Source: Dictyostelium discoideum
Lineage: Eukaryota
Direction of reading: 5' to 3'
NCBI GenBank assembly: GCA_000004695.1
Contig: CM000155.2
Span: 3,328,001 to 3,392,000, forward strand
Length of the DNA stretch: 64,000 nt
Shown: one piece after another, positions 2,823 through 59,658 of the stretch
How the letters are laid out: every line of letters begins with the position of its first letter
How positions within the stretch are numbered: position 1 is the first letter of the stretch
Program-made: the position numbers and the translations under genes
The notes under the pieces: generated by a model
What the model saw: the letters and a program-made list of their open reading frames with translations, nothing else
What the model was told of the DNA's origin: nothing
The model's database searches: none

Positions 2823-3227
2823 GTTATTTTTTATTTTTTTTTTTTGATTATTTGTATAAATAAAAAATATAAAGTGTTTGTGCGTTGTAGTTTTAAGATA
2901 AATATTTAATCTTAATTCATCAAGTAATGATTGAAGGTGGTCCTCTTTATTTATTTCTAATAAAGCATGAACATCTATAAGTTCCGAAGTTTGACTTTTT
3001 GGTTTATCTACATGCTGAGGTTGACAATCCTTAAGGTGAGCACCTTGTGCTAGAGGACCAGATTGATGATCATGATGTGGATTGGATATTACTTGAGACG
3101 GTAAACTGTCTGTCTCCCATTCATTGTTTTTGTCTTTATCTATTTTTTAAAAAAATAAAAAATTAGTATCAATAATTATTGATTTAATAATTAATAAAGT
3201 GGTTAGTTTAAACTACTTACCAGACAT
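2823..3227 (-). CDS. Small two-exon gene (about 108 aa), paralogue of the gene at 4058-4867. Hypothetical protein.
   Basis: The proposed micro-exon is ATG TCT G (3227..3221) followed by a GTAAGTAG donor. The intron ends ...AAAAAATAG and exon 2 starts at 3139 (GAT AAA GAC...). The resulting ORF MSDKDKNNEWETDSLPSQVISNPHHDHQSGPLAQGAHLKD... shares the PH(H/Y)DHQSGP.AQ / SQT.E.ID block with the downstream gene. It is not in the ORF track because exon 2 has no Met. The 3' end is uncertain because the C-terminal tail is low complexity. Confidence 0.35.
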
Positions 3228-4057: not shown

Positions 4058-4867
4058 TCACTGGTTAATAACTAAGAGAAAAAATTTAATTTTAATTAAA
4101 TTTGTTTTTAATTTCTCTAGTTGATCTCTTGAGGCTGCACTCGTTCCCGCATCCAATTTGTTTTTGCAAAATATCAATACACTTTGATACTCTCCGAAAT
4201 CCTTTTGATTTTGATTATTATTATCAAGGATTAAATTATTTAAGTTTTCCAAAAAAACTGTTTCTGTTTGAAATCCAATATTATTTATGAAAAAGTTATA
4301 TGATTTTTTTAACTCTTCATTAATATCATTCCATAGGAAGTACCAGGGATTGTCAATTCTGTTTTGGGTTGGTAATGGTACCGACATGCATGGTTGATCT
4401 GTTACACTTATTCTTATTACATTTGGTGTGGATGTTGACGTAGCTATGGAGAAGGTTGGTTTTTTTGTTGTAGATATAATTTGTTGTGGTATTTGTGGTG
4501 GGGCCGAATTCCAATAATCTCTAGCTTGACTGATCTCTTGTTCTTGATCGGTTGCTGTTGATGCTGATGTTGTTGTTGTTGTTGTTGCTATTGTTCTTTG
4601 AAGAGAAAGATTTGATCTCATCTCGTTAAGTAATTGCTGAGTTTCCTCTATAGGAATTCCCAAACCATCAAAATCAATAGGTTCTGGAGTTTGACTTATA
4701 TGTCTACCTGGAAGTTGTGTTTGATTATGACTATCGTGAGTTTGTGCTTGAGGACCAGATTGATGGTCATAATGTGGTCTGGTTATTGCTTGTGTTGGTA
4801 ATCTATCTGTTGTTTCTAATTGATTATTTTGAAAAAAAAAAATTAGTTTTAGTATCTTTAAGAGTTT
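4058..4867 (-). CDS. Ser/Thr-rich hypothetical protein (about 270 aa), paralogue of 2823-3227.
   Basis: This is the non-low-complexity part of the 4058..5086 ORF. The likely start is ATG at 4867 (MKRKLLKILK...NNQLETTDRLPTQAITRPHYDHQSGPQAQTHD...). The ORF-track N-terminal extension to 5086 runs through poly-T and is not credible. Its N-terminal block is conserved with the neighbour gene. Confidence 0.4.
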   Translation of the reverse strand, partial: KLLKILKLIFFFQNNQLETTDRLPTQAITRPHYDHQSGPQAQTHDSHNQTQLPGRHISQTPEPIDFDGLGIPIEETQQLLNEMRSNLSLQRTIATTTTTTSASTATDQEQEISQARDYWNSAPPQIPQQIISTTKKPTFSIATSTSTPNVIRISVTDQPCMSVPLPTQNRIDNPWYFLWNDINEELKKSYNFFINNIGFQTETVFLENLNNLILDNNNQNQKDFGEYQSVLIFCKNKLDAGTSAASRDQLEKLKTNLIKIKFFLLVINQ

Positions 4868-17588: not shown

Positions 17589-18215
17589 AAATTAAAAATA
17601 AATTAAATAATTTAATAGAAAGACACACACAAACAAATATAGAGAGAGATAGAAAATTGATTTATTATGATAAAAAAATGAAAAAAATGAAATGTAAAAT
17701 AAAAAAAAAAAAAAAAAGTGAATATGTTTATTACAATGAAAAGTTAGGGGGGGATGAAACACACATACCCATTTTATCATAAATCTACAAAATTTGGAAA
17801 TGGTTTTTTTTTATAGGAATAAATTTTTTTTTTTTATCATAATTAAAATAAAAAATAAGAATTAATTAAACATCAGCTTTATTATTATCCAAAAAAATAA
17901 AAAAATAAAAAAAAAAAAGTGTTAAAATCTAAATTAAGCAAATATATATATATATTTTTTTTTTTTTTATATATAATTAAAAAAAAAAAAAAAAAATTAC
18001 TAATTTTGATTTACTTTTGCTTATTTTAAATTATTTTGGAATTTTTTTCCTTTTTCAGTTTAATTATCACTAATTTAAAAAGTAAATTGAAATTTATTAA
18101 TTTATTTTTTTTTTTTTTTTTTTTTTCAATTCATTTTTTTCAATTTTCCTTTTTTTTTTTATTTTTTTTTTTTTTTTAATTCATTTTTTTTATTTTATTT
18201 TTTTAAAAAAAAGAA

Positions 18216-19790
18216 ATGAATGGAGTTGATATAAATTCAAATTTAGATTCAATTAAAGCAAAAGCAGAAGATATTAGAAATTTATTATTAACAACTTCAA
18301 CTGGTAATTGGGAGGATATTTTAGGACATTTTGTAGTATTATCAGGTGAATATGGATCATTAGTCAGAGAGGTCAATAATATATACGATAGTGTTGCAGT
18401 ATTTCCTGAACAAGTTACAGGTGATCCAAATTTAATACCAAATTTATTAAGAACAAAACTATCACCAGAATTGGAGACCAAGAATAGAGATATCATAAAT
18501 CAATACGTTTCAAAGAATTCCACTCACTATGATCCTGGAAATCAAGAGGAGAATATACCACCATTGAAATTACATATAAAATCATTCAATGATAGAATAG
18601 ATAAAGTGGATCAAGAATTTGAGAATAAAATTCAACAAATCAGTAAACATAAATTAACCAAACCATCAGCATCCCACGATACCGCAATCCTCAAAGACAT
18701 CCTCTCCATCACAATGCTAGGATCAGGTATTAAAATCAATGCTCAACAACAATTAGCACAACAACAACAACAACAAGCTACAATCAATGCATTACAACAA
18801 CAACAAAGATTATTAAATGCACAACAACAACAACAACAGCAACAACAACCACAAGCATTATATAAATTACCTGCTACAAATACTGCAAATACTTCAACTA
18901 ATACACCATCATCAACAATTGTAATTAATTCACCATCACCTGGTGGTATTCATCATAATGTACCAACACCACCAACCAATCTAAATGCTGCTGGTACTAG
19001 AACTTCACCACCAAATGTACAGCAATATGTAAATTCACCACCACCACAACAACAACAGCAACAACAAATTAATACAGTCATTGGAACACCAAATACAATA
19101 CCAACCACACCAACAGCAACAGTATCAACTGCTGCCACTTATAAACCAGTGGCATCACCACAACAACAAGTTACTTCTAAGCAAGTACCAATACAGTCAA
19201 CAAATAAACCATTACCACAACAACAACCTTCAATACAAATTCAACCACAACAATCTATTGTGCAAATGGTGCAGAATGTTTTACCAAATACAACTTCACC
19301 ACCTGTTAACAATAATAATCAATCACCAATTAATAGTGGTATTGGAGGAGGTCAATTTAAACCATCAGCTATTAATATTGCAAATGCAAATAGTGGTACA
19401 TCAACAATTCAACAACAAATTCAATTACAACAACAACAATTACAACAACAAATTCAATTACAACAACAATTAGCACAGCAGCAACAACAAAATCAACAAA
19501 ATCAACAAAATCAACAAAACCAGCAAAACCAACAAAATCAACAAATTCATCAACATATTCAACATTTAACACCACAACAACAAGCTCAATTACAACAACA
19601 AATGTTACAACAACAACAACTTCAACAACAATTTCAACAACAACAATTATCACAACAACTTTTACAACAACAACAACTTCATCAACAACAACAACCAAAT
19701 CAAACAATTCAAAATCCATTTCATAATTTTCAAGCAAATAATTTCAGAGTTCAAAATCCTACAAATTTTAATCCACCACAAAATCAATAA
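18216..19790 (+). CDS. med8: Mediator of RNA polymerase II transcription subunit 8 homologue, with a long Gln-rich C-terminal extension.
   Basis: The N-terminal 120 aa align with metazoan MED8. GHFVVLSGEYGSLVREV corresponds to DSFALLSGQLNTLNKVL, and LLRTKLSPELETKNRDI corresponds to HLRTKPDPEVEEQEKQL. The rest is polyQ/polyN/Thr-Pro low complexity typical of Dictyostelium transcription factors. The identity is inferred from recalled motifs only. Confidence 0.6.
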   Translation: MNGVDINSNLDSIKAKAEDIRNLLLTTSTGNWEDILGHFVVLSGEYGSLVREVNNIYDSVAVFPEQVTGDPNLIPNLLRTKLSPELETKNRDIINQYVSKNSTHYDPGNQEENIPPLKLHIKSFNDRIDKVDQEFENKIQQISKHKLTKPSASHDTAILKDILSITMLGSGIKINAQQQLAQQQQQQATINALQQQQRLLNAQQQQQQQQQPQALYKLPATNTANTSTNTPSSTIVINSPSPGGIHHNVPTPPTNLNAAGTRTSPPNVQQYVNSPPPQQQQQQQINTVIGTPNTIPTTPTATVSTAATYKPVASPQQQVTSKQVPIQSTNKPLPQQQPSIQIQPQQSIVQMVQNVLPNTTSPPVNNNNQSPINSGIGGGQFKPSAINIANANSGTSTIQQQIQLQQQQLQQQIQLQQQLAQQQQQNQQNQQNQQNQQNQQNQQIHQHIQHLTPQQQAQLQQQMLQQQQLQQQFQQQQLSQQLLQQQQLHQQQQPNQTIQNPFHNFQANNFRVQNPTNFNPPQNQ

Positions 19791-20759
19791 AAGTAAATAT
19801 AAATATAAAAATTTATATTTAGAAAAAAAAAAAAAAAATTATTTGATCTGAGACCATAATATTTTATGAATATTTTTTTAATTATTAAAAAAAAAAAAAA
19901 AAAACTAAAAATTAAAACTCACTTAATTTAGGCACATCATTTTTTTTTTTATTTTTTTTTATTTGGATTGTTTTTAAAAAAAAAAAAAAAAAAAAAAGTT
20001 TATATAAAATAGTAGTGGAGAAAAAAAAAAAAAAAAAACAGTTTACGATGGTGCATTAATAAAAAAAAAACAAAAAAAGATAAAAATAAATTTCCCCCAT
20101 CACACAACAACATAAATCCACTCTTTCAAAAACAAATAATTAATTATTTAAAAAAAAATAAAAAAAATAAAAATTACCATTTTCAAATAATTTTATTTTG
20201 TATTTTTTACAAATTGGGGTGGTTTTTTTTTTTTTTTTTTTAAATATTCAATTGAATTATTAATTTTAATTTTAAAAAAAAAAAATTCAACACGCACATT
20301 TCAACCTCACACTCTCTCTGGCTTCTCTCTTTCTCTTATTTAATTTAAAATTCAACTTTTAAAAATATTTTCTATCTACAAATTGATAGCAGATCGTATA
20401 TTGGAAAAAAAACTAAAAATAAAAAAAAAATAATTAAAAAAATAATTTAAAAAAATTAAATTAAAAATAAACAAATAAGGTTTTTTTTTTTTTTTATCAG
20501 ACACCCACCCCACTATATATAATTTATTTAATAAAAAAAAAAATAAAAAAAAAAAAAAATAATAAAAAAAAACAATATTAAAAATATAATGTAATGTTTT
20601 AGGAAAAAAAAAAAAAAAAAAATTAAAATACAATTTATATGTTGCACATATAAATTGAAAAACACCAATAATAATAATAATCAAAATAAAAATTATTATT
20701 ATTATTATAATATAAAATTAAAATAAAATAAAAATAAAAAATATAATAATAATTTAAAA

Positions 20760-24734
<3,975 letters not shown>

Positions 24735-24977
24735 TTAATAATTTTTATAATAATAATAAAAAAAAAAAAAGGCGCTTCACCCCCTATACATATATATGTA
24801 TTTATATAAACTTTCAAAAAGATTTTTATTACTTTTTTTTTAATTTTTTTACTCTTGTGTAAAATTAAAAATGTTGGTAACCTAATAATTATTATAATTA
24901 ATATTTTTTAAATTATTAAAAATATTATTAAATTGAAATAATGGTGAATCAGTTAATTGTTTCTCGACTGGATTTGA

Positions 24978-25250
24978 TTATTGTTTACTGCTTCTACTAC
25001 TACTACCATTACTACTACTAATACTACAACTACTACAACTACCACTACTACCACTAAGTATTCTCTCTGGTAATTTCTCATTTGATTTATCTGGGTTACG
25101 AGTGCCTAAAAATTCCCAAATAAAACCAGATTGAGGCTGTAGATGTGCTGGTGGGGGGTAAAATGCTCCAACCCTTATATGAGTAATAGAGTTGATACAT
25201 GAAAAGAATAAAAAAATAAATAACAGTAAGGGGATTGAGAACTTAAACAT
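24978..25250 (-). CDS. Possible small secreted protein of 90 aa: signal peptide plus Ser/Gly/Cys-rich tail.
   Basis: MFKFSIPLLLFIFLFFSCINS is a signal-peptide-like N-terminus. The remainder is non-repetitive. A G12 run sits about 135 bp upstream at 25381-25392. There is no homology support. Confidence 0.3.
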   Translation of the reverse strand: MFKFSIPLLLFIFLFFSCINSITHIRVGAFYPPPAHLQPQSGFIWEFLGTRNPDKSNEKLPERILSGSSGSCSSCSISSSNGSSSRSSKQ

Positions 25251-25922
25251 TTTTTAAAAAATAATGCAAATAATTTGTAAATAAAAAAAGAATAAATAAA
25301 AGAAAAATATATTCCTATATTTAAAAAATAAAATAAAAAATACATATGATAATAAATAAAAAATAAAATACCACCAATTTAACAAAGGGGGGGGGGGGTA
25401 CCACAAATAAACAAAATATAACACCACCAATTTTTTATCTTTTTACATAAAAAGATTAGTTTTTTTTTTATTTTTTTTATATTTCAATTAAGTTACAAAA
25501 ATGTGGAAGTACAAAAAATAATATGAATTTTCAAAAAAACTTAGTATTAACAGATGTTTAATTGAAGATATAACTGGAGACCTCTCAACATAAAAAAAAG
25601 AATGCACCAAAGGTTGAAATAATAATGATTGACATTGTTGAAAAAATATTTAGAGATTGTACTACCATGTTCACAAATTACTTTAAAGATGCTAAAATTG
25701 GAATAAAAAGAAAAGACCAATGTAGTGGAGTTAATTATTATATTTATTTGAAAGAGAAGAAGAAGATTGTGAATTTTTAAAAAATAAATAGTCAGGTTGT
25801 TCATTTAAGTCAAGAAAATAGTAACAAATCTGAATCTTTAAATGGTAAATTAATAAAAAAAAAATTATAATTATATTTATGTTATTGAAAAATAATTAAT
25901 TTGTTTGTCATGTAATATTATT

Positions 25923-25955
<33 letters not shown>

Positions 25956-26152
25956 AGAAGATAGCTATTGGCCGATGCGAAATAATATTTCCAGTATTAT
26001 CTGATTTTTGATTTAATAAATGCAAATTAATTACTGATGGAAAAAATAGGCTTTTTGTTAAAAAAAAAAAAAAAAAGATTCTTAATTATTTTTTTGATAA
26101 TTTAATAAGAAAATGAAAGAGTTTTTTTTTTTTTTTTAATTTGGGTTTATCT

Positions 26153-26162
26153 ATCCCACAAA
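26153..26162 (+). promoter_or_regulatory. DUSE-like element (ATCCCACAAA) about 70 nt upstream of the class I RNA candidate.
   Basis: It matches the recalled Dictyostelium upstream sequence element consensus (A/T)CCCA(C/T)AA, which is found about 60 nt upstream of many ncRNA genes. Confidence 0.45.
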
Positions 26163-26231
26163 ATTATTTTTTTATTTAAAATTTCTTATATAATTTTTTA
26201 ATTCTTTTTTTTAAATGTGTAAAACATTTAA

Positions 26232-26271
26232 GTTGACCTTACAGCAAATCTTGCAGAAAACCTTAGTCAAC
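26232..26271 (+). ncRNA. Class I non-coding RNA candidate (DdR-21 family)
   Basis: The sequence is GTTGAC-CCTTACAGCAA-ATCTTGCAGAAAACCTTA-GTCAAC. It has perfectly complementary 6-nt termini (GTTGAC/GTCAAC). The conserved class I 11-nt motif CCUUACAGCAA lies immediately 3' of the 5' stem. A T-run (TGTCTTTTTTTTT) follows and a DUSE-like box precedes. Confidence 0.6.
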
Positions 26272-26294
26272 TGTCTTTTTTTTTAATTATTTGG

Positions 26295-26660
26295 GATAAC
26301 TATCGTTTAAAATTAAAGCTGGTGTAGTTGGTATTCCAATGATTGTATTAATTTGTTGTTGTTATTGTTGTTGTAATGGTGGTGGATTTACATATTGCTG
26401 TGCATTTGATGGTGTTGGTGGTGGTGGTGGATTTACATATTGTTGTACATTTGGTAGTGAAGTTCTAGTACCAGCAGCATTTAGATTGGTTGGTGCAGTA
26501 TGATGAATTAATTGCAATTGTTGATGATGGTGTATTAGTTGAATTTGTATTAGAATCTGTTGTTGCTATTGTTTATTTGTTGCTTTATAAGCAGCAACAG
26601 CTGTTGTTACTGTAGTTGGTATTTCATTTGGTGTTCCAATAACTTTATTAATTTGCTGTT
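26295..26660 (-). pseudogene. Inverted, degenerate partial duplicate of the med8 coding region (corresponds to about 18880-19160), with an internal about 40-bp duplication and in-frame stops.
   Basis: The reverse complement of 18880-19100 (ggtgtggttggtattgtatttggtgttccaatgactgtattaatttgttgttgctgttg...ggtgaagttctagtaccagcagcatttagattggttgg) is recognisable at 26300-26530. By eye identity is about 85-90%. A second overlapping block 26570-26650 matches the reverse complement of 19075-19160. Confidence 0.6.
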
Positions 26661-27347
26661 GTGTTTAGTGAAATAAATTGTGGTATATAAATGTCAATTA
26701 ATAATGCTATTATAATTATTGCAAAAAAAAAAAAAAAAAAAAAGTTTATTTGTTAATTGAATAAATTGATTATTTTTATTATTATAATAAATATTATTAT
26801 TATTTATTATTATTAAAGTTATTCATTTTTGATTCCATATGGCAGTATTTTTTTTTTTTTTTTTTTTATTTGATTGGTTTTTTTTTTTTTTTTTTTAATT
26901 ATAAATTAGGTTGAATATTTTTATTTTTTTATTTTTAAAAAATAATTTATGACAAAACTGTCATTTTCCGAGCTATTTAATGATTTATGGGTGAATGGTT
27001 TCGAAAAATAACGGATCACCTGGTGGTTTTAAAAATTTAAAATAAAATAAAAAATTTTAAAATAAAAAAAAATAAAAAAAAAAAAAAAAAATATTTTCAT
27101 AATTTTTTATTTTTTTTATTTTTATTTTTATTTTTTTTGAAAAGACACCAACATTGCTTTTTTTTTTTTTTTTTTTTTTTTTTTGGAATAAAGGAAAAAG
27201 AAAAAGAAAAAAAAAAAAAAAAAAAAAAAAACAAAAAAGTTTTTGTGTAATGTAATAATTCATTTTTTTTTTTATATGAATGTAAAATCGAAAAAATATA
27301 AATAATAAATAATAAACAATAATAATAAAAAAAAAAAAAAATACTAA

Positions 27348-29677
27348 ATGGAACAGGTTGTGGAATTCCTTGAAAATTGTGATTTATATCCAAAATTAGA
27401 AGGTAAGATTTTTTTTTTTTTTTTTTCCACCCAAACTTCCAAAAAAAAATTATTTTTATTATTTTTATTATTTTTATTATTTTATTATTTTTAAAAATAG
27501 AATATTGAATGAAAATTAATTAATTAATTTAAAATAATTAGAAAAAAAAAAAAACTCAAGAAATCCATTATCAGGTATTATTACAATTATTTATTTACCA
27601 TTATTAATATTTTATTTATGGTTTAGTATTAGACCACAATATGGAGCGTTACCAAATTGTTGTGCATGTGCTGCTCATTCAACACCAAAAGAATCATGGA
27701 TATATGAAGCGATTAAACCTGAATGTATGAATTCAACAAGTTGTAGAGAGAATGTACAAAAACAACTAACACTGAATTGTGATGCAACTTTACAATATTT
27801 ACCGATACCTGATGTCAATTTGACGATGAATATAGCCGAGATTGGGTGTCTAGGTTTGAAACCGGGTGATTCATGTAATGAAGAGTGTTTAGCGGTATCA
27901 AATCGATGGATAACCAGTCTGGACTACACCAACCAAGACAACCAATACCAGGCTATAATCCGGTGTCCTTTGCAAATTGGTGTATGTGATTTCAAGGCGG
28001 TGTATAGTAACCAAGAGACTGCGCCACATGCGGTGTGCAGGTACCCCGAGCTGAATGGGTTGTTGATTATTTTAGGCTCAGGTTTGTCACTATTAAATGG
28101 ATTTTTAATAACACTTCGAATTATGTTACGTACATTTTGGAGTAGAATAGGAGCGAATAATACAAAGAATGGTCGTATGGGTGATTATTGGAAGGGGGTG
28201 GTGATAGGTGTGGTGTTCAATTATTTTGGCATACTTTACCTCTCGCTAGCAAAGGATATCTCCAAACGTATGAGATATGGTGGTCAACTATCGATTGGGT
28301 TTCTACTACTCTTTTTCAAAAGCCCCCTTGTCATTTACCTAATGGCGGTGTTCTCGTCGTTTTGGACTCCGATGGGGATACTACTAGGTTTAGGATTTAT
28401 CGCAGTTTCAATTATAATTAGAACAGTATTCAATTTGGTTGTATTGGAAATCAGATCTAGAAATTGTGTTGTACTATCACAAGGTTCTATTGAACAATTT
28501 GGTATAATCGGTGAAGATAGTGAAGAGTCAAAGAACGATAACCCATTAAGATACTACCAACAACCCGACCGAATTAAACCAGTCCCTTACACCACATGGA
28601 AAGATTTCTTTAAAGGTTTCTATATGAACCTTTTCGCAATAATCCTACTTCACGGCTTAAAGAAATCCTATAAACGTTATTCAGGTTTAAAAAATGGTTT
28701 CTACGTTTCAATTGGTTGTTCAACTATGATCATAGTTTGGATTTTACTTTGGTCATTAAACGGTTGGGATTACATAACTTATAATTTCCCATTCCCACTA
28801 TTACCAAATTTAAATAAATCAACCACCACTACCACCACCATCATTCCATCATCATCAACATCATCAACATCACCAACGTCATCACCATCACCATCACCAT
28901 CATTATCATCAACATCATCATCATCATCATCATCAATTGAATATGTTGAATCATTAACAACAAATGAGTTAATGAAAATTGCATTTTTACAATCAATTTA
29001 TTATGTGATATCATGGGCAATTGCAATGATGATGGTATTTCATTTTAGTTTATTTTTAAAATATTTACCAGTGAATCAAGGGGTAAACTTTTTTAGATTT
29101 TTAAAAAAGAAACATGGTACTCGTATGGATTATAGATTTGGATTTATCGTGGGAATTATACCAGTGGTTTTAACAAGTTTCTTCTTTTTTTATTTCTTCT
29201 TTTATCCATATGTTGAAGCACCGTTACCATCGAATCCATCATTATGTTCATTCCCAGCTTGGACTTTAATCATACCATGTCTTGGTTTACTACCATCAAT
29301 GTTAATGTTTATATTCTCACCAAGTGAAAGATTTAGGTCAGGTATTATCTCTGCGATTGGAGTTTCAATACTTTTCTTTGGTATGGGATCAACCCTATTA
29401 TTATTAAATTATTGTTTAGGTCCGAATCAAGATAAATTCAATCCATTAGCTTGGTTAATCACTTTATTTGGTTCTTTTATTATAGTTTTTGGTTCAATTC
29501 GTAGTGATACCATTTTAATTTTAGATAAAAAAAAAGAGAATCCAAGATTCATAGAAGAGGAAAGATTATTATCTTCATCAACTCAAATTAAAAATATAAT
29601 TGAAGATTCAATTGATTATAATGAAATTATAATTAATAATGGTAGTCAAAATTATAAAACAATTAATAATTCAATTT

Positions 29678-36715: not shown

Positions 36716-36815
36716 NNNNNNNNNNNNNNNNNNNNNNNNNNNNNNNNNNNNNNNNNNNNNNNNNNNNNNNNNNNNNNNNNNNNNNNNNNNNNNNNNNNNN
36801 NNNNNNNNNNNNNNN
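36716..36815. other. Assembly gap (100 N)
   Basis: Run of n. Confidence 0.99.
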
Positions 36816-40443: not shown

Positions 40444-40563
40444 TTAATTCAAAGGGTACCGAGNNNNNNNNNNNNNNNNNNNNNNNNNNNNNNNNNNNNN
40501 NNNNNNNNNNNNNNNNNNNNNNNNNNNNNNNNNNNNNNNNNNNNNNNNNNNNNNNNNNNNNNN
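40444..40563. other. Assembly gap (120 N)
   Basis: Run of n. Confidence 0.99.
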
Positions 40564-56036: not shown

Positions 56037-56136
56037 NNNNNNNNNNNNNNNNNNNNNNNNNNNNNNNNNNNNNNNNNNNNNNNNNNNNNNNNNNNNNNNN
56101 NNNNNNNNNNNNNNNNNNNNNNNNNNNNNNNNNNNN
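56037..56136. other. Assembly gap (100 N)
   Basis: Run of n. Confidence 0.99.
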
Positions 56137-57497: not shown

Positions 57498-57557
<60 letters not shown>

Positions 57558-57900
57558 CCAAGTTAATCAGAAAAATAAAAAAGATAGAAAGAAAATAAAA
57601 TGAAAATCACAAACAACACCACAAATATTAAGCAACACAAATGCCTACAAAAAATAAGCGAAATTGTGGATAAAACTCAATTAAAAAAAAAACAATTCAA
57701 ATACGTCATAAACATCAATCACGAACCAGACGATAAAATAAAAAAAGATTTAGAAAAAAGTTGGGACAAAAAAGATGTTTTAATCAAAAAGACCCTGTAA
57801 AAAAAAAAAAAAAATAAAATGAGATCTAGCATCTCAAGGAGAAGCAAATAATAATTGCGTTATCCAATTCAAAAAAAAAAAAAAAAAAAAACAATTCAAA

Positions 57901-58273
57901 AAAAAAGAAAAAACAAACAACAACAACAATCTCTTTTTTTGATTATTTCATTTTTCATATAAAAAAGACTTAAAAAACAAATAAATAAATAAATAAACTA
58001 TTTTAAAAAGCCATCTTTTTACTTTATTGTAATTTATTATTTGTTTCGTTTTGAGAATTTTGCGTAGCAAAATTTTCAAAAAAAAAGCAAAAAATAATCA
58101 GATCGAAAAAAACAAACAACAACAACAATCTCTTTTTTTGATTATTTCATTTTTCATATAAAAAAGACTTAAAAAACAAATAAATAAAAAAAGCAAAAAA
58201 TAATCAGATCGAAAAAAACAAACAACAACAACAATCTCTTTTTTTGATTATTTCATTTTTCATATAAAAAAGA

Positions 58274-58290
<17 letters not shown>
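57901..58290 (+). repeat. Three tandem copies of an about 100-bp unit (A-module-like 5' UTR unit of TRE5) lying between two C-module copies.
   Basis: The unit ...aataatcagatcgaaaaaaacaaacaacaacaacaatctctttttttgattatttcatttttcatataaaaaagacttaaaaaacaaataaataaa is repeated at about 57905, 58100 and 58200. Confidence 0.7.
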
Positions 58291-58310
<20 letters not shown>

Positions 58311-59454
58311 GGAACCCAAGTTAATCAGAAAATTTCCAGATTTTTAACTTTTTAAAGTAAAATAAAAAAAATAGAAAGAAAAAAAGATGAAAATTACAAA
58401 CAACACCACAAATATTAAGCAACACAAATGCCTACAAAAAATAAGTGAAATTGTGGATAAAACTCAAACAAAAAAAAAAAAAAAAAAGTAAACTAACCCC
58501 TCTTTTAAAGACCCTGTAAAAAAAAAAAAAAAAAACCTAAAAATAAAATGAGATCTAGCATCTCAAGGAGAAGCAACTAATAATTGCGTTATCCAATTCA
58601 AAAAAAAAAAAGGTTTATTAAAAAAAGTCCACCCAAATATATATAACATCACATAACGCACTTTACCCTCGACATAAAAAAAAAAAAAAAAAAAAAAATA
58701 TATATAAAACTAATAACCCGGAAAAAAAAAAAAAAAGGGGACCATTGTAAAATTAAAACCTACTATATTAAAATGAGATTAATCTCATGAAGAAGCAACT
58801 CACAATTGCGTTATTCCATTCAAAAAAAATGGTTTATTGAAAAAATAATTGCGTTATCCAATTCAAAAAAAAAAAAAAAGAAGAAACTACAAATAAGAGA
58901 TTAATAGTTTATTTGTATATTTAAGATAGTAAAGAAAACACAATTCTTTTTATTTAATATTTTTAGAGTATTTATATTAATATTTTGAGTACCAGGATGA
59001 GCCTTCTATAGTCAGTTAGTATTTAATATTATTTATTGTTATTGGCAAACCTTCTAAAGTCGGTTATTACTAGTAACTGAATTATATTATGATTCTTATG
59101 ATTTCCATATTAATATATGTCAATACATAAATCCATATTAGTTTTAATATGGTGAATCATTACATTATTTATATTTAAATTTATTTATATTTTTATTTAA
59201 TAGCTTAATAATAATCTGAATCAAAATTAAATTATTTTTTTATATTTATAATAAATTAAATGAGTGACATTTATATAATTTGACAAATTTAAGATATTTA
59301 TTTTATTTTTAAATAATATAAATAGTATAATTTTATAAAAAATAAGGTAATTTTATTAGTATAAAAAGAAAAATAATTTTATATTCAGTGGGTTACATAC
59401 ATAAAATATAATTACAAAAGACCACTTTCGTTATATTTTTTTTTTTTTTTTTTT

Positions 59455-59584: not shown

Positions 59585-59658
59585 GCCTTAGTAGCTCAGT
59601 TGGTACGAGCGTGAGACTGAAGATCTTAAGGTCGCTGGTTCGATCCCGGCCTGAGGCA
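59585..59658 (+). tRNA. tRNA-Phe (anticodon GAA)
   Basis: GCCTTAG-TA-GCTC-AGTTGGTAC-GAGC-G-TGAGA-CTGAAGA-TCTTA-AGGTC-GCTGG-TTCGATC-CCGGC-CTGAGGC-A. The acceptor stem is 7 bp, D-stem 4 bp, anticodon stem 5 bp (one G-U) and T-stem 5 bp. The A box is TAGCTCAGTTGG and the B box is GGTTCGATCCC. The anticodon loop CTGAAGA closely matches yeast tRNA-Phe. Confidence 0.95.

Follow-up and report, generated by a model that had tools for sequence, protein, structure and literature searches.

An inverted and permuted partial copy of med8 in a Dictyostelium discoideum-specific spacer, probably an inert non-processed pseudogene fragment

The locus

A stretch of 64,000 nucleotides of the Dictyostelium discoideum genome (GenBank assembly GCA_000004695.1, contig CM000155.2, positions 3,328,001 to 3,392,000 of the forward strand), referred to below as the window, contains a 354-bp fragment derived from the gene med8. 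The fragment is inverted relative to med8, disabled, and made of med8 segments in a permuted order. It was interpreted as an inert, non-processed (DNA-mediated) pseudogene fragment of med8, a reading to which a probability of about 0.8 was given. All positions are those of the window unless a chromosome is named, and the features are collected in Table 1.

The N-terminal 190 residues of the parent open reading frame (ORF) were searched against Pfam and gave a weak match to Med8 (PF10232; E 2.8e-4, 21 bits, gathering score 28.3) over aa 29-159 of the 524-aa ORF. UniRef gives the name Mediator subunit 8 to the D. firmibasis ortholog, which shares 81% identity with the ORF. Together, the two results bear out the name med8 that an initial annotation of this DNA had given to the ORF. 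A homologous-protein search with full-length Med8 retrieved only the D. firmibasis ortholog from a collection that does not hold D. discoideum Med8 itself, and the N-terminal domain or the linker gave zero matches in the same collection. Exact protein look-ups of Med8 and of its 1324-aa neighbour found one assembly only. This neighbour, encoded at 20760-24734 (+) in the interval between med8 and the fragment, is an Asn-rich protein with an F-box-like domain (PF12937, E 1.9e-7, residues 565-609). The fragment lies 6.5 kb from med8, or 7.2-7.6 kb when measured between the two arms of the inverted repeat, with the F-box gene in between, and occupies the spacer between the F-box gene and a membrane-protein gene. 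It is a compositional island: its G+C content is 33.6%, vs 21.4% for the intergenic DNA on either side and 21.7% for the window, which is extremely AT-rich. The non-coding RNA gene that had been noticed beside the fragment is the Class I RNA gene DdR-62, preceded by a Dictyostelium upstream sequence element (DUSE) and a TGTG box.

Table 1. Window positions of the med8 fragment, its parent gene and associated features (nt, nucleotides; aa, amino acids).
Feature	Position	Strand	Remarks
Parent gene med8	18216..19790	+	single-exon ORF, 524 aa + stop codon
Source segment within med8	18890..19244	+	disordered Thr/Pro/Gln-rich linker, ~aa 226-343, outside the Med8 domain; 3' limit probable (see text)
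D. discoideum-specific block, ~2.1 kb	24735..26850	.	no counterpart in the syntenic D. firmibasis spacer; right after the F-box gene stop codon
90-aa ORF in the 2.1-kb block	24978-25250	-	hydrophobic N-terminus (MFKFSIPLLLFIFLFFSCINS...), Ser-rich tail
Weak snoRNA-like stretch (snoRNA, small nucleolar RNA)	25970-26053	+	Rfam box C/D snoR117, 15.1 bits, E 5.4, non-significant
DdR-62 DUSE, TCCCACAA	26154-26161	+	motif; 58 nt upstream of the TGTG box
DdR-62 TGTG box	26213-26219	+	motif
Class I RNA gene DdR-62, 42 nt	26232..26273	+	sequence identical to curated DdR-62 (PMC7919456)
T9 run after DdR-62	26276-26284	+	between DdR-62 and the fragment
Whole med8-derived fragment, 354 bp	26316..26669	-	med8 sense orientation on the minus strand
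Part 1 (sense 5' part)	26583..26669	-	second partial copy of med8 ~19051-19147, QQQINKVIGTPNEIPTTVTTAVAAYK
Ambiguous CAA/AAT-rich junction stretch, ~36 nt	26547..26582	-	holds TAG stop 26566-26568
Part 2, block B	26499..26546	-	med8 18890-18937, STNTPSSTIAINS, 90% over 48 nt, 29-nt perfect match 26515-26543
Part 2, block C, best preserved	26418..26495	-	med8 18970-19047, PTNLNAAGTRTSLPNVQQYVNPPP, 96% over 78 nt, 39-nt perfect match 26457-26495
Part 2, block D and 3' end	26316..26414	-	med8 19006-19114, 9-nt deletion, TAA stop 26362-26364
45-bp (15-codon) tandem duplication	26364-26408 / 26409-26453	-	units 82% identical, both ~med8 19006-19050
Inverted arm	18970-19047/26418-26495	inverted	96%
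Inverted arm	19006-19097/26323-26414	inverted	89%
Inverted arm	19059-19123/26597-26661	inverted	83%
Inverted arm	18860-18936/26500-26576	inverted	78%
tRNA-Phe (GAA) gene	59585-59658	+	only window Rfam match at gathering threshold

Homology between the fragment and med8

The BLASTN comparison with the med8 region that the initial annotation had proposed was run with 26200-26760 against 18100-19900. The fragment gave a minus-strand match of 149 bits (E 1e-39) and two further matches of 84 and 70 bits. CAA/AAT-rich coding DNA is abundant in the window, and in a search of the whole 64 kb the best match outside med8 was a CAA repeat of 47 bits. The Smith-Waterman local score of the fragment against the med8 coding sequence was 175, vs 35.9 +/- 5.8 (maximum 54) for 200 dinucleotide-preserving shuffles. 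The score is thus about 24 standard deviations over the shuffles and three times that of the best match to other low-complexity coding DNA in the 64 kb. Chance low-complexity similarity is refuted by the shuffle test and the whole-window control.

An inverted-repeat search detected four arms with 78-96% complementarity between med8 and the fragment (Table 1), and the identity of the aligned blocks ranges from 83 to 96%. The longest perfect matches (39 nt, 26457-26495 = 18970-19008; 29 nt, 26515-26543 = 18893-18921) are both in non-repetitive sequence. When the window was masked with dust and compared with itself, three non-low-complexity dispersed duplicates only were found, the med8/fragment pair being one of them.

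Med8 aa 215-345 were compared by exhaustive HMMER with 1.84 billion representative sequences. The Med8 cluster (2.8e-27) and one weak repetitive match were the only results, which rules out another parent gene or a paralogue; med8 is the only possible parent of the fragment. The whole Med8 protein was compared by tblastn with 24735-27530 and gave no match outside 26320-26661. Neither this search nor the self-comparison of the window disclosed a further shared segment, and a remnant of a larger inverted duplication is thereby ruled out. A second, independent D. discoideum assembly, GCA_054883475.1 (contig JBTAPE010000001.1), is 99.5% identical to the window over 21.6 kb and base-for-base identical across 26100-26840. 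The identical fragment in that assembly rules out an assembly artefact.

Structure of the copy

Read in the med8 sense (26669 to 26316), the fragment begins with med8 ~19051/19058 to ~19147/19244 and continues with 18890-19114; it is not colinear with its parent. Part 1 shows 83% identity over 65 nt in the repeat search and 86% in the ungapped columns of a global alignment. Within it, 26597-26669 is a second copy of med8 19051-19123, located on the sense 5' side of the main copy. The junction stretch that follows can be aligned in at least three ways (med8 19195-19244, 19135-19200 or 19051-19075), and its best local alignment was matched by 2 of 500 shuffles. The first of these alignments is favoured, although not proven: it would place an exact 12-mer (CAACAAATAAAC) and an exact 14-mer (AATACAAATTCAAC) colinearly and at similar spacing in the two sequences. 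The source segment is certain up to 19147; its extension to 19244 depends on these two colinear oligomers, for which alternative alignments exist. The breakpoint between parts 1 and 2 lies within 26547-26582 or at the adjoining hexamer TTCAAC, its exact position being ambiguous (26547-26600 is multiply alignable). TTCAAC, at the candidate internal junction, is present in med8 at 18893-18898 and at 19239-19244.

Part 2 is composed of three blocks. Block B is in a different frame from the other blocks as a result of downstream deletions. Relative to med8, it is followed by deletions of 20 nt and 9 nt, each flanked in med8 by short direct repeats (ATTCA; ACCAAC). Block C encodes PTNLNAAGTRTS...QQYVN. 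Block D is 89% identical over 92 nt (26414 to 26323 = 19006-19097), and homology ends at about 26316, which corresponds to med8 19114. Blocks C and D overlap in med8 coordinates, hence the 45-bp tandem duplication within the fragment. This duplication was not reported by the TRF program at its threshold. Disabling lesions are numerous: only ~aa 226-343 of the 524 residues are covered, the 20-nt and 9-nt deletions shift the frame, no start codon is present, and the sole long minus-strand frame, which has no ATG, is interrupted by one TAG and one TAA (Table 1).

In several respects, this structure refines the initial annotation. An inverted, disabled, DNA-level partial copy had been recognized correctly, as had the stop codons, which are the TAG and TAA of the otherwise open minus-strand frame. 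The copy had been taken for the reverse complement of a single segment, and this colinearity does not hold. The homology proposed for 26295-26660 is real, with limits moved to 26316-26669. For the source, which had been given as 18880-19160, the 3' limit is at least 19147 and probably ~19244. The internal duplication described as about 40 bp exists and measures 45 bp.

Substitutions and selection

The fragment and med8 differ at 22 of 250 robustly aligned ungapped nucleotides (8.8%). Differences are spread evenly over codon positions 1, 2 and 3 (8:8:6, chi-square p = 0.83). Sixteen of the 22 are non-synonymous, including one nonsense change, and six are synonymous; 12 of the 22 are GC>AT. In the stretch that could be polarised with D. 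firmibasis, ~5 changes are private to the fragment, and D. discoideum med8 has a single private change, the synonymous CAA>CAG at 19022. At the level of sequence, this pattern is typical of a copy in neutral decay whose parent stays under constraint.

The doubled segments carry some information on relative timing. The two copies of med8 19058-19110 within the fragment share two differences from med8, both synonymous there, and differ mutually at ~9 sites; the doubling of 19058-19110 is therefore about as old as the fragment. By contrast, both units of the 45-bp duplication carry TCA>CCA at med8 19035, where D. firmibasis has Ser, which indicates that this duplication came later. Divergence is lower in block C (3/78) than elsewhere (26/205; Fisher p = 0.028, a post hoc comparison).

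Comparison with D. firmibasis

The order of med8, the F-box gene and the membrane-protein gene is kept in D. firmibasis. The spacer between the last two measures 476 nt in D. firmibasis vs 2,613 nt in D. discoideum, and the whole 476-nt spacer aligns to 26854-27342 only. The remainder of the D. discoideum spacer is the ~2.1-kb species-specific block of Table 1, which contains the 90-aa ORF, the snoRNA-like stretch, DdR-62 and the med8 fragment. In D. firmibasis, the locus shows neither a Class I motif nor, besides med8 itself, any med8-like fragment. No second copy of the block was found within the 64-kb window. Its content looks as if it had been assembled by successive insertions. The 90-aa ORF is without a Pfam match and without a gene call in GCA_054883475.1. 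A T-run and an A-run, together an inverted repeat (25938-25969 / 26045-26076), enclose the snoRNA-like stretch.

At no fewer than eight sites, the fragment has the state of D. discoideum med8 and not that of D. firmibasis (for instance TNLNAAGTRTS vs TSVNAANTRTS), and it also carries the D. discoideum-specific QQQINTVIGTPNTIPTTP segment of med8. These shared D. discoideum-specific states and the absence of the fragment from D. firmibasis imply that the copy was made after the two species split. Divergence between fragment and med8 is ~0.09, vs an interspecies synonymous divergence (dS) of 0.40-0.70 for the med8 N-terminal domain. As a rough estimate from these sequence distances, the fragment would have arisen at 20-40% of the time since the split, if most of the change occurred on the fragment lineage.

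The adjacent Class I RNA gene

DdR-62 is listed on chr6 (DDB0232433) at 3,354,230-3,354,273, plus strand (PMC7919456), which puts base 1 of the window at about chr6 3,328,000 in D. discoideum AX4. Its score against Rfam RF01414, 35.9 bits (E 6.9e-5), does not reach the gathering score of 41.5, and the gene is therefore missed by a default Rfam scan. Alignment with DdR-26/49/51 shows a 15-nt internal deletion in DdR-62. Like the Dictyostelid Class I RNA genes (RF01414), DdR-62 has a 5'/3' terminal stem, the 11-nt CCTTACAGCAA motif, a correctly spaced DUSE, a TGTG box and a T-run. Unlike them, it is only 42 nt long and is not abundantly expressed. RNA-seq yielded 0, 0, 10, 9, 4 and 3 reads (duplicates at 0 h, 4 h and 8 h of development), so that reads were confined to 4 h and 8 h, and the gene was scored as not expressed, with a read-coverage score of 0; expressed Class I RNAs gave 1e3 to 1e6 reads in the same RNA-seq (PMC7919456). 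With canonical motifs, a length of only 42 nt and practical silence, DdR-62 looks like a degenerate copy of a Class I gene. The upstream flank of DdR-62, which would define the extent of its duplication, was sought in the supplementary files of PMC7919456 and was not found there. Its link to the med8 fragment consists of adjacency in the same lineage-specific block only. The DdR-62 promoter is the only plus-strand promoter identified upstream of the fragment.

The plus-strand RNA of 26274-26700 was folded and gave z = -1.13, with 13 of 100 shuffles folding equally well. The repeats inside the fragment are all direct and none is inverted, hence no adjacent foldback arm exists; the arm in med8 is >7 kb off, with another gene in between. 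The fold statistic and the exclusively direct internal repeats rule out a microRNA-like hairpin or a foldback proto-MIRNA (an incipient microRNA gene). A catalogue of developmental long non-coding RNAs (lncRNAs) and antisense RNAs has no entry on chr6 between 3,258,955 and 3,487,966 (PMC5295588).

Origin of the copy

Three of the four characters by which non-processed pseudogene fragments are recognized were found here: homology to a parent gene, disabling lesions, and the lack of purifying selection on the old frame. For the fourth, the lack of an expressed functional product, the indications are negative ones from the literature, namely the empty lncRNA catalogue and the silent neighbouring promoter. 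As in other gene relics of this kind, a partial copy of a nearby gene was made at the DNA level, has neither promoter nor start codon, contains stops and frameshifts, and shows AT-biased neutral decay. The med8 fragment differs in being very small (354 bp), internal to one exon, inverted and permuted. A permuted order is not what a plain segmental duplication yields. One tandem duplication within a colinear insert cannot give the observed order S-P-S' either (3' part, 5' part, 3' part again). Apart from A/T homopolymers, 24700-27000 contains no terminal inverted repeats (TIR), target-site duplications (TSD) or flanking direct repeats. With no TIR or TSD found in 24700-27000, transposon capture of the Pack-MULE or Helitron type is rejected.

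A copy of ~350-400 bp of med8 linker-coding DNA would have been inserted, inverted, into the spacer that separates the F-box and membrane-protein genes, after the split between D. discoideum and D. firmibasis. A single replicative repair event with a backward template switch would be the most parsimonious origin of the permuted order, a broken or stalled end copying med8 in inverted orientation and possibly switching at the TTCAAC microhomology. Alternatively, a small circular intermediate (~350 bp, closed at TTCAAC) or a concatemeric one may have been copied slightly over once around. Template switching is considered the likelier of the two routes, a tentative preference that stops short of even odds. 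Afterwards, the insert would have drifted neutrally, accumulating ~9% substitutions, the 45-bp tandem duplication, three small deletions with short direct repeats at their edges, and two stops.

Fork stalling and template switching (FoSTeS) and microhomology-mediated break-induced replication (MMBIR) give rise to templated insertions and complex rearrangements. The med8 fragment resembles these in being a short, inverted copy of a template that lies a few kb off, in the backward jump, which duplicates ~60 nt of the template, and in the candidate 6-nt microhomology TTCAAC at the internal junction. It differs from them in that the process was deduced here from the end product alone, and across a low-complexity junction that can be aligned in several ways.

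Alternative explanations

Several other explanations were weighed against an inert pseudogene fragment. Convergence of unrelated CAA/ACA-rich low-complexity coding DNA, or a retrocopy of med8 mRNA, might account for the CAA/ACA/CCA-rich composition of the fragment and for the A-runs nearby (A21 at 26724-26744; A9 on the minus strand at 26276-26284). Convergence is contradicted by a local score so far over the shuffles and by the two long perfect matches in non-repetitive sequence. A retrocopy is rejected, in agreement with the initial annotation, since the copy is internal to the coding sequence, ends at med8 19114, ~675 nt before the stop codon, does not include the mRNA 3' end, and is permuted. 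No poly-A is attached on the sense 3' side; the nearest sense-strand A-run (A9) is the complement of the DdR-62 T9 run, 31 nt past the end of homology. In the window, med8 is one uninterrupted ORF, and intron loss is consequently no criterion for a retrocopy here. The probability left to these two explanations is negligible. A place for the fragment in a genuine protein-coding gene is suggested by a 134-residue multi-exon gene called in GCA_054883475.1, at window ~25630-26668 (+) (17408-18446 in L001, 10865-11903 in L003), and by open frames of 54 aa on the plus strand and 51 aa on the minus strand (26362-26517). However, the 134-aa model has no Pfam match, crosses DdR-62 and the T-run and, within the fragment, is the antisense of Gln/Thr/Pro codons, read as a Cys/Gly/Val-rich string; it is likely to be a gene-finder artefact. 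The 54-aa plus-strand ORF is on record nowhere else, the minus-strand frame has stops and no ATG, the region is missing in D. firmibasis, and the substitution pattern is not coding-like. A coding role is accordingly held to be extremely improbable. Slightly more room is left for a role in gene conversion or ectopic recombination, in which the fragment, as a reservoir, would occasionally exchange sequence with the med8 linker or invert the intervening stretch, although this too is improbable. Its arguments are the identity of block C (96% vs 83-90% elsewhere, p = 0.028), the perfect 39-nt and 29-nt tracts, and the proposal of the same concept for non-contiguous Dictyostelium tgr fragments (PMC12745789). 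On the other side, the heterogeneity test is post hoc and weak, and no phylogeny-contradicting mosaic tract common to the fragment and med8 was seen. No other part of the linker is as well conserved between species as block C, although this does not by itself account for the smaller number of changes on the fragment lineage. An inversion would also disrupt med8.

The fragment might also be the template for a trans-acting antisense RNA or small interfering RNA (siRNA) against med8, for example through read-through from DdR-62. This gene lies directly upstream (42 nt) on the plus strand, so that such a transcript would be antisense to med8 mRNA, with 39 nt and 29 nt of perfect complementarity, and could pair with it and enter the RNA interference machinery. 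Block C is unusually well kept. D. discoideum has Dicer and RNA-dependent RNA polymerase (RdRP) pathways, and a few mRNA-antisense small RNAs were cloned (PMC2175303). Against this stand the 0-10 reads of DdR-62, which was scored as not expressed, and the T9 run, the usual stop of RNA polymerase III type noted for Class I genes, which precedes the fragment. Furthermore, no lncRNA or antisense RNA is catalogued within >100 kb on chr6, no hairpin is formed, the substitution and indel pattern looks neutral, and the absence of the locus from D. firmibasis means that it is no conserved regulator. An antisense role is hence very unlikely. The idea of antisense transcripts against med8, put forward in the initial annotation, finds no support in these data: DdR-62 is practically silent, the T9 run intervenes, no lncRNA is catalogued, and the RNA has no significant structure. 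A more specific version has a marginally smaller probability still. In a young trans-acting antisense module, timed low-level transcription from the DdR-62 promoter might pass through T9 into 354 nt of antisense med8, and siRNAs made by RdRP and Dicer, seeded by the 39-nt and 29-nt perfect matches, might tune Mediator subunit 8 early in development.

An inert, non-processed pseudogene fragment of med8 is the reading we retain. Several points weigh against it. The mechanism of copying is unprovable, as the junction is of low complexity and multiply alignable, and the 2.1-kb block missing in D. firmibasis leaves no empty site from which the outer boundaries could be read. The evidence from which we infer a lack of function is all negative, and the lncRNA catalogue is a thresholded one. 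With perfect matches of 39 nt and 29 nt surviving, any transcript would be competent for RNA interference. The preservation of block C could hint at gene conversion or constraint, and it could also be due to chance. Finally, GCA_054883475.1 is near-identical to the window, both neighbour proteins being 100% identical; it probably represents the same laboratory lineage and would then be uninformative on natural populations.

Relation to known systems and significance

Loci that yield endogenous siRNAs (endo-siRNAs) from pseudogenes are known in mouse oocytes, and plant proto-MIRNA genes are born by inverted duplication of their targets. The med8 fragment is like both in its antisense orientation, in its long perfect complementarity and in residing in a host with Dicer and RdRP. 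It is unlike them in having no adjacent inverted arm or hairpin and no sign of transcription, and in not being kept in the sister species.

Partial, probably pseudogenic copies of the neighbouring genes tgrB and tgrC surround the Dictyostelium allorecognition locus (PMC12745789). Like the med8 fragment, they are scattered in lineage-specific, unalignable spacer DNA (PMC12745789). Unlike it, they belong to a polymorphic multi-copy family in a hypermutable hotspot; here a single copy of a single-copy housekeeping gene lies in an otherwise syntenic region. The initial annotation had called this kind of duplication unusual, which overstates the case, as small non-processed gene fragments are a known kind, described at the tgr locus (PMC12745789). 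The one unusual trait of the med8 fragment is its permuted order.

For biology at large, the fragment has little weight and is one more dead gene fragment. Its interest lies in the permuted order as a clean, datable footprint of template switching or of a circular intermediate in an extremely AT-rich genome. The 2.1 kb of spacer in which this footprint sits is itself a lineage-specific expansion, where a degenerate Class I RNA gene was gained as well. Two practical consequences concern annotation: the 134-aa model of GCA_054883475.1 deserves a flag as a spurious gene, and short reads that originate in the med8 linker can be mapped to the fragment by mistake. If the antisense reading were confirmed, Amoebozoa would have in the fragment their first trans-antisense regulator of the pseudogene type, but no evidence points there. 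As a module placed behind a non-coding RNA promoter, it would then be a lineage-specific regulatory innovation made from a gene fragment.

Additional features of the window

All coding sequence that was checked is identical between the window and GCA_054883475.1. Of 26 mismatches in total, 16 cluster in 20094-20509, where a spacer separates med8 from the F-box gene, and almost all of these are toward A/T in the newer assembly. Errors of sequencing in one of the two assemblies may explain the cluster, or the patch may be truly variable. The window contains three runs of exactly 100 N, which are assembly gaps (36716-36815, 40464-40563 and 56037-56136), and five single N's (908, 43415, 52362, 52555 and 52670). 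Besides med8 and the fragment, the only non-low-complexity duplicates in the window are 57515-57882 vs 58266-58611 and 2885-3113 vs 4591-4810. Both pairs are direct and ~70% identical and are presumably old tandem paralogues.

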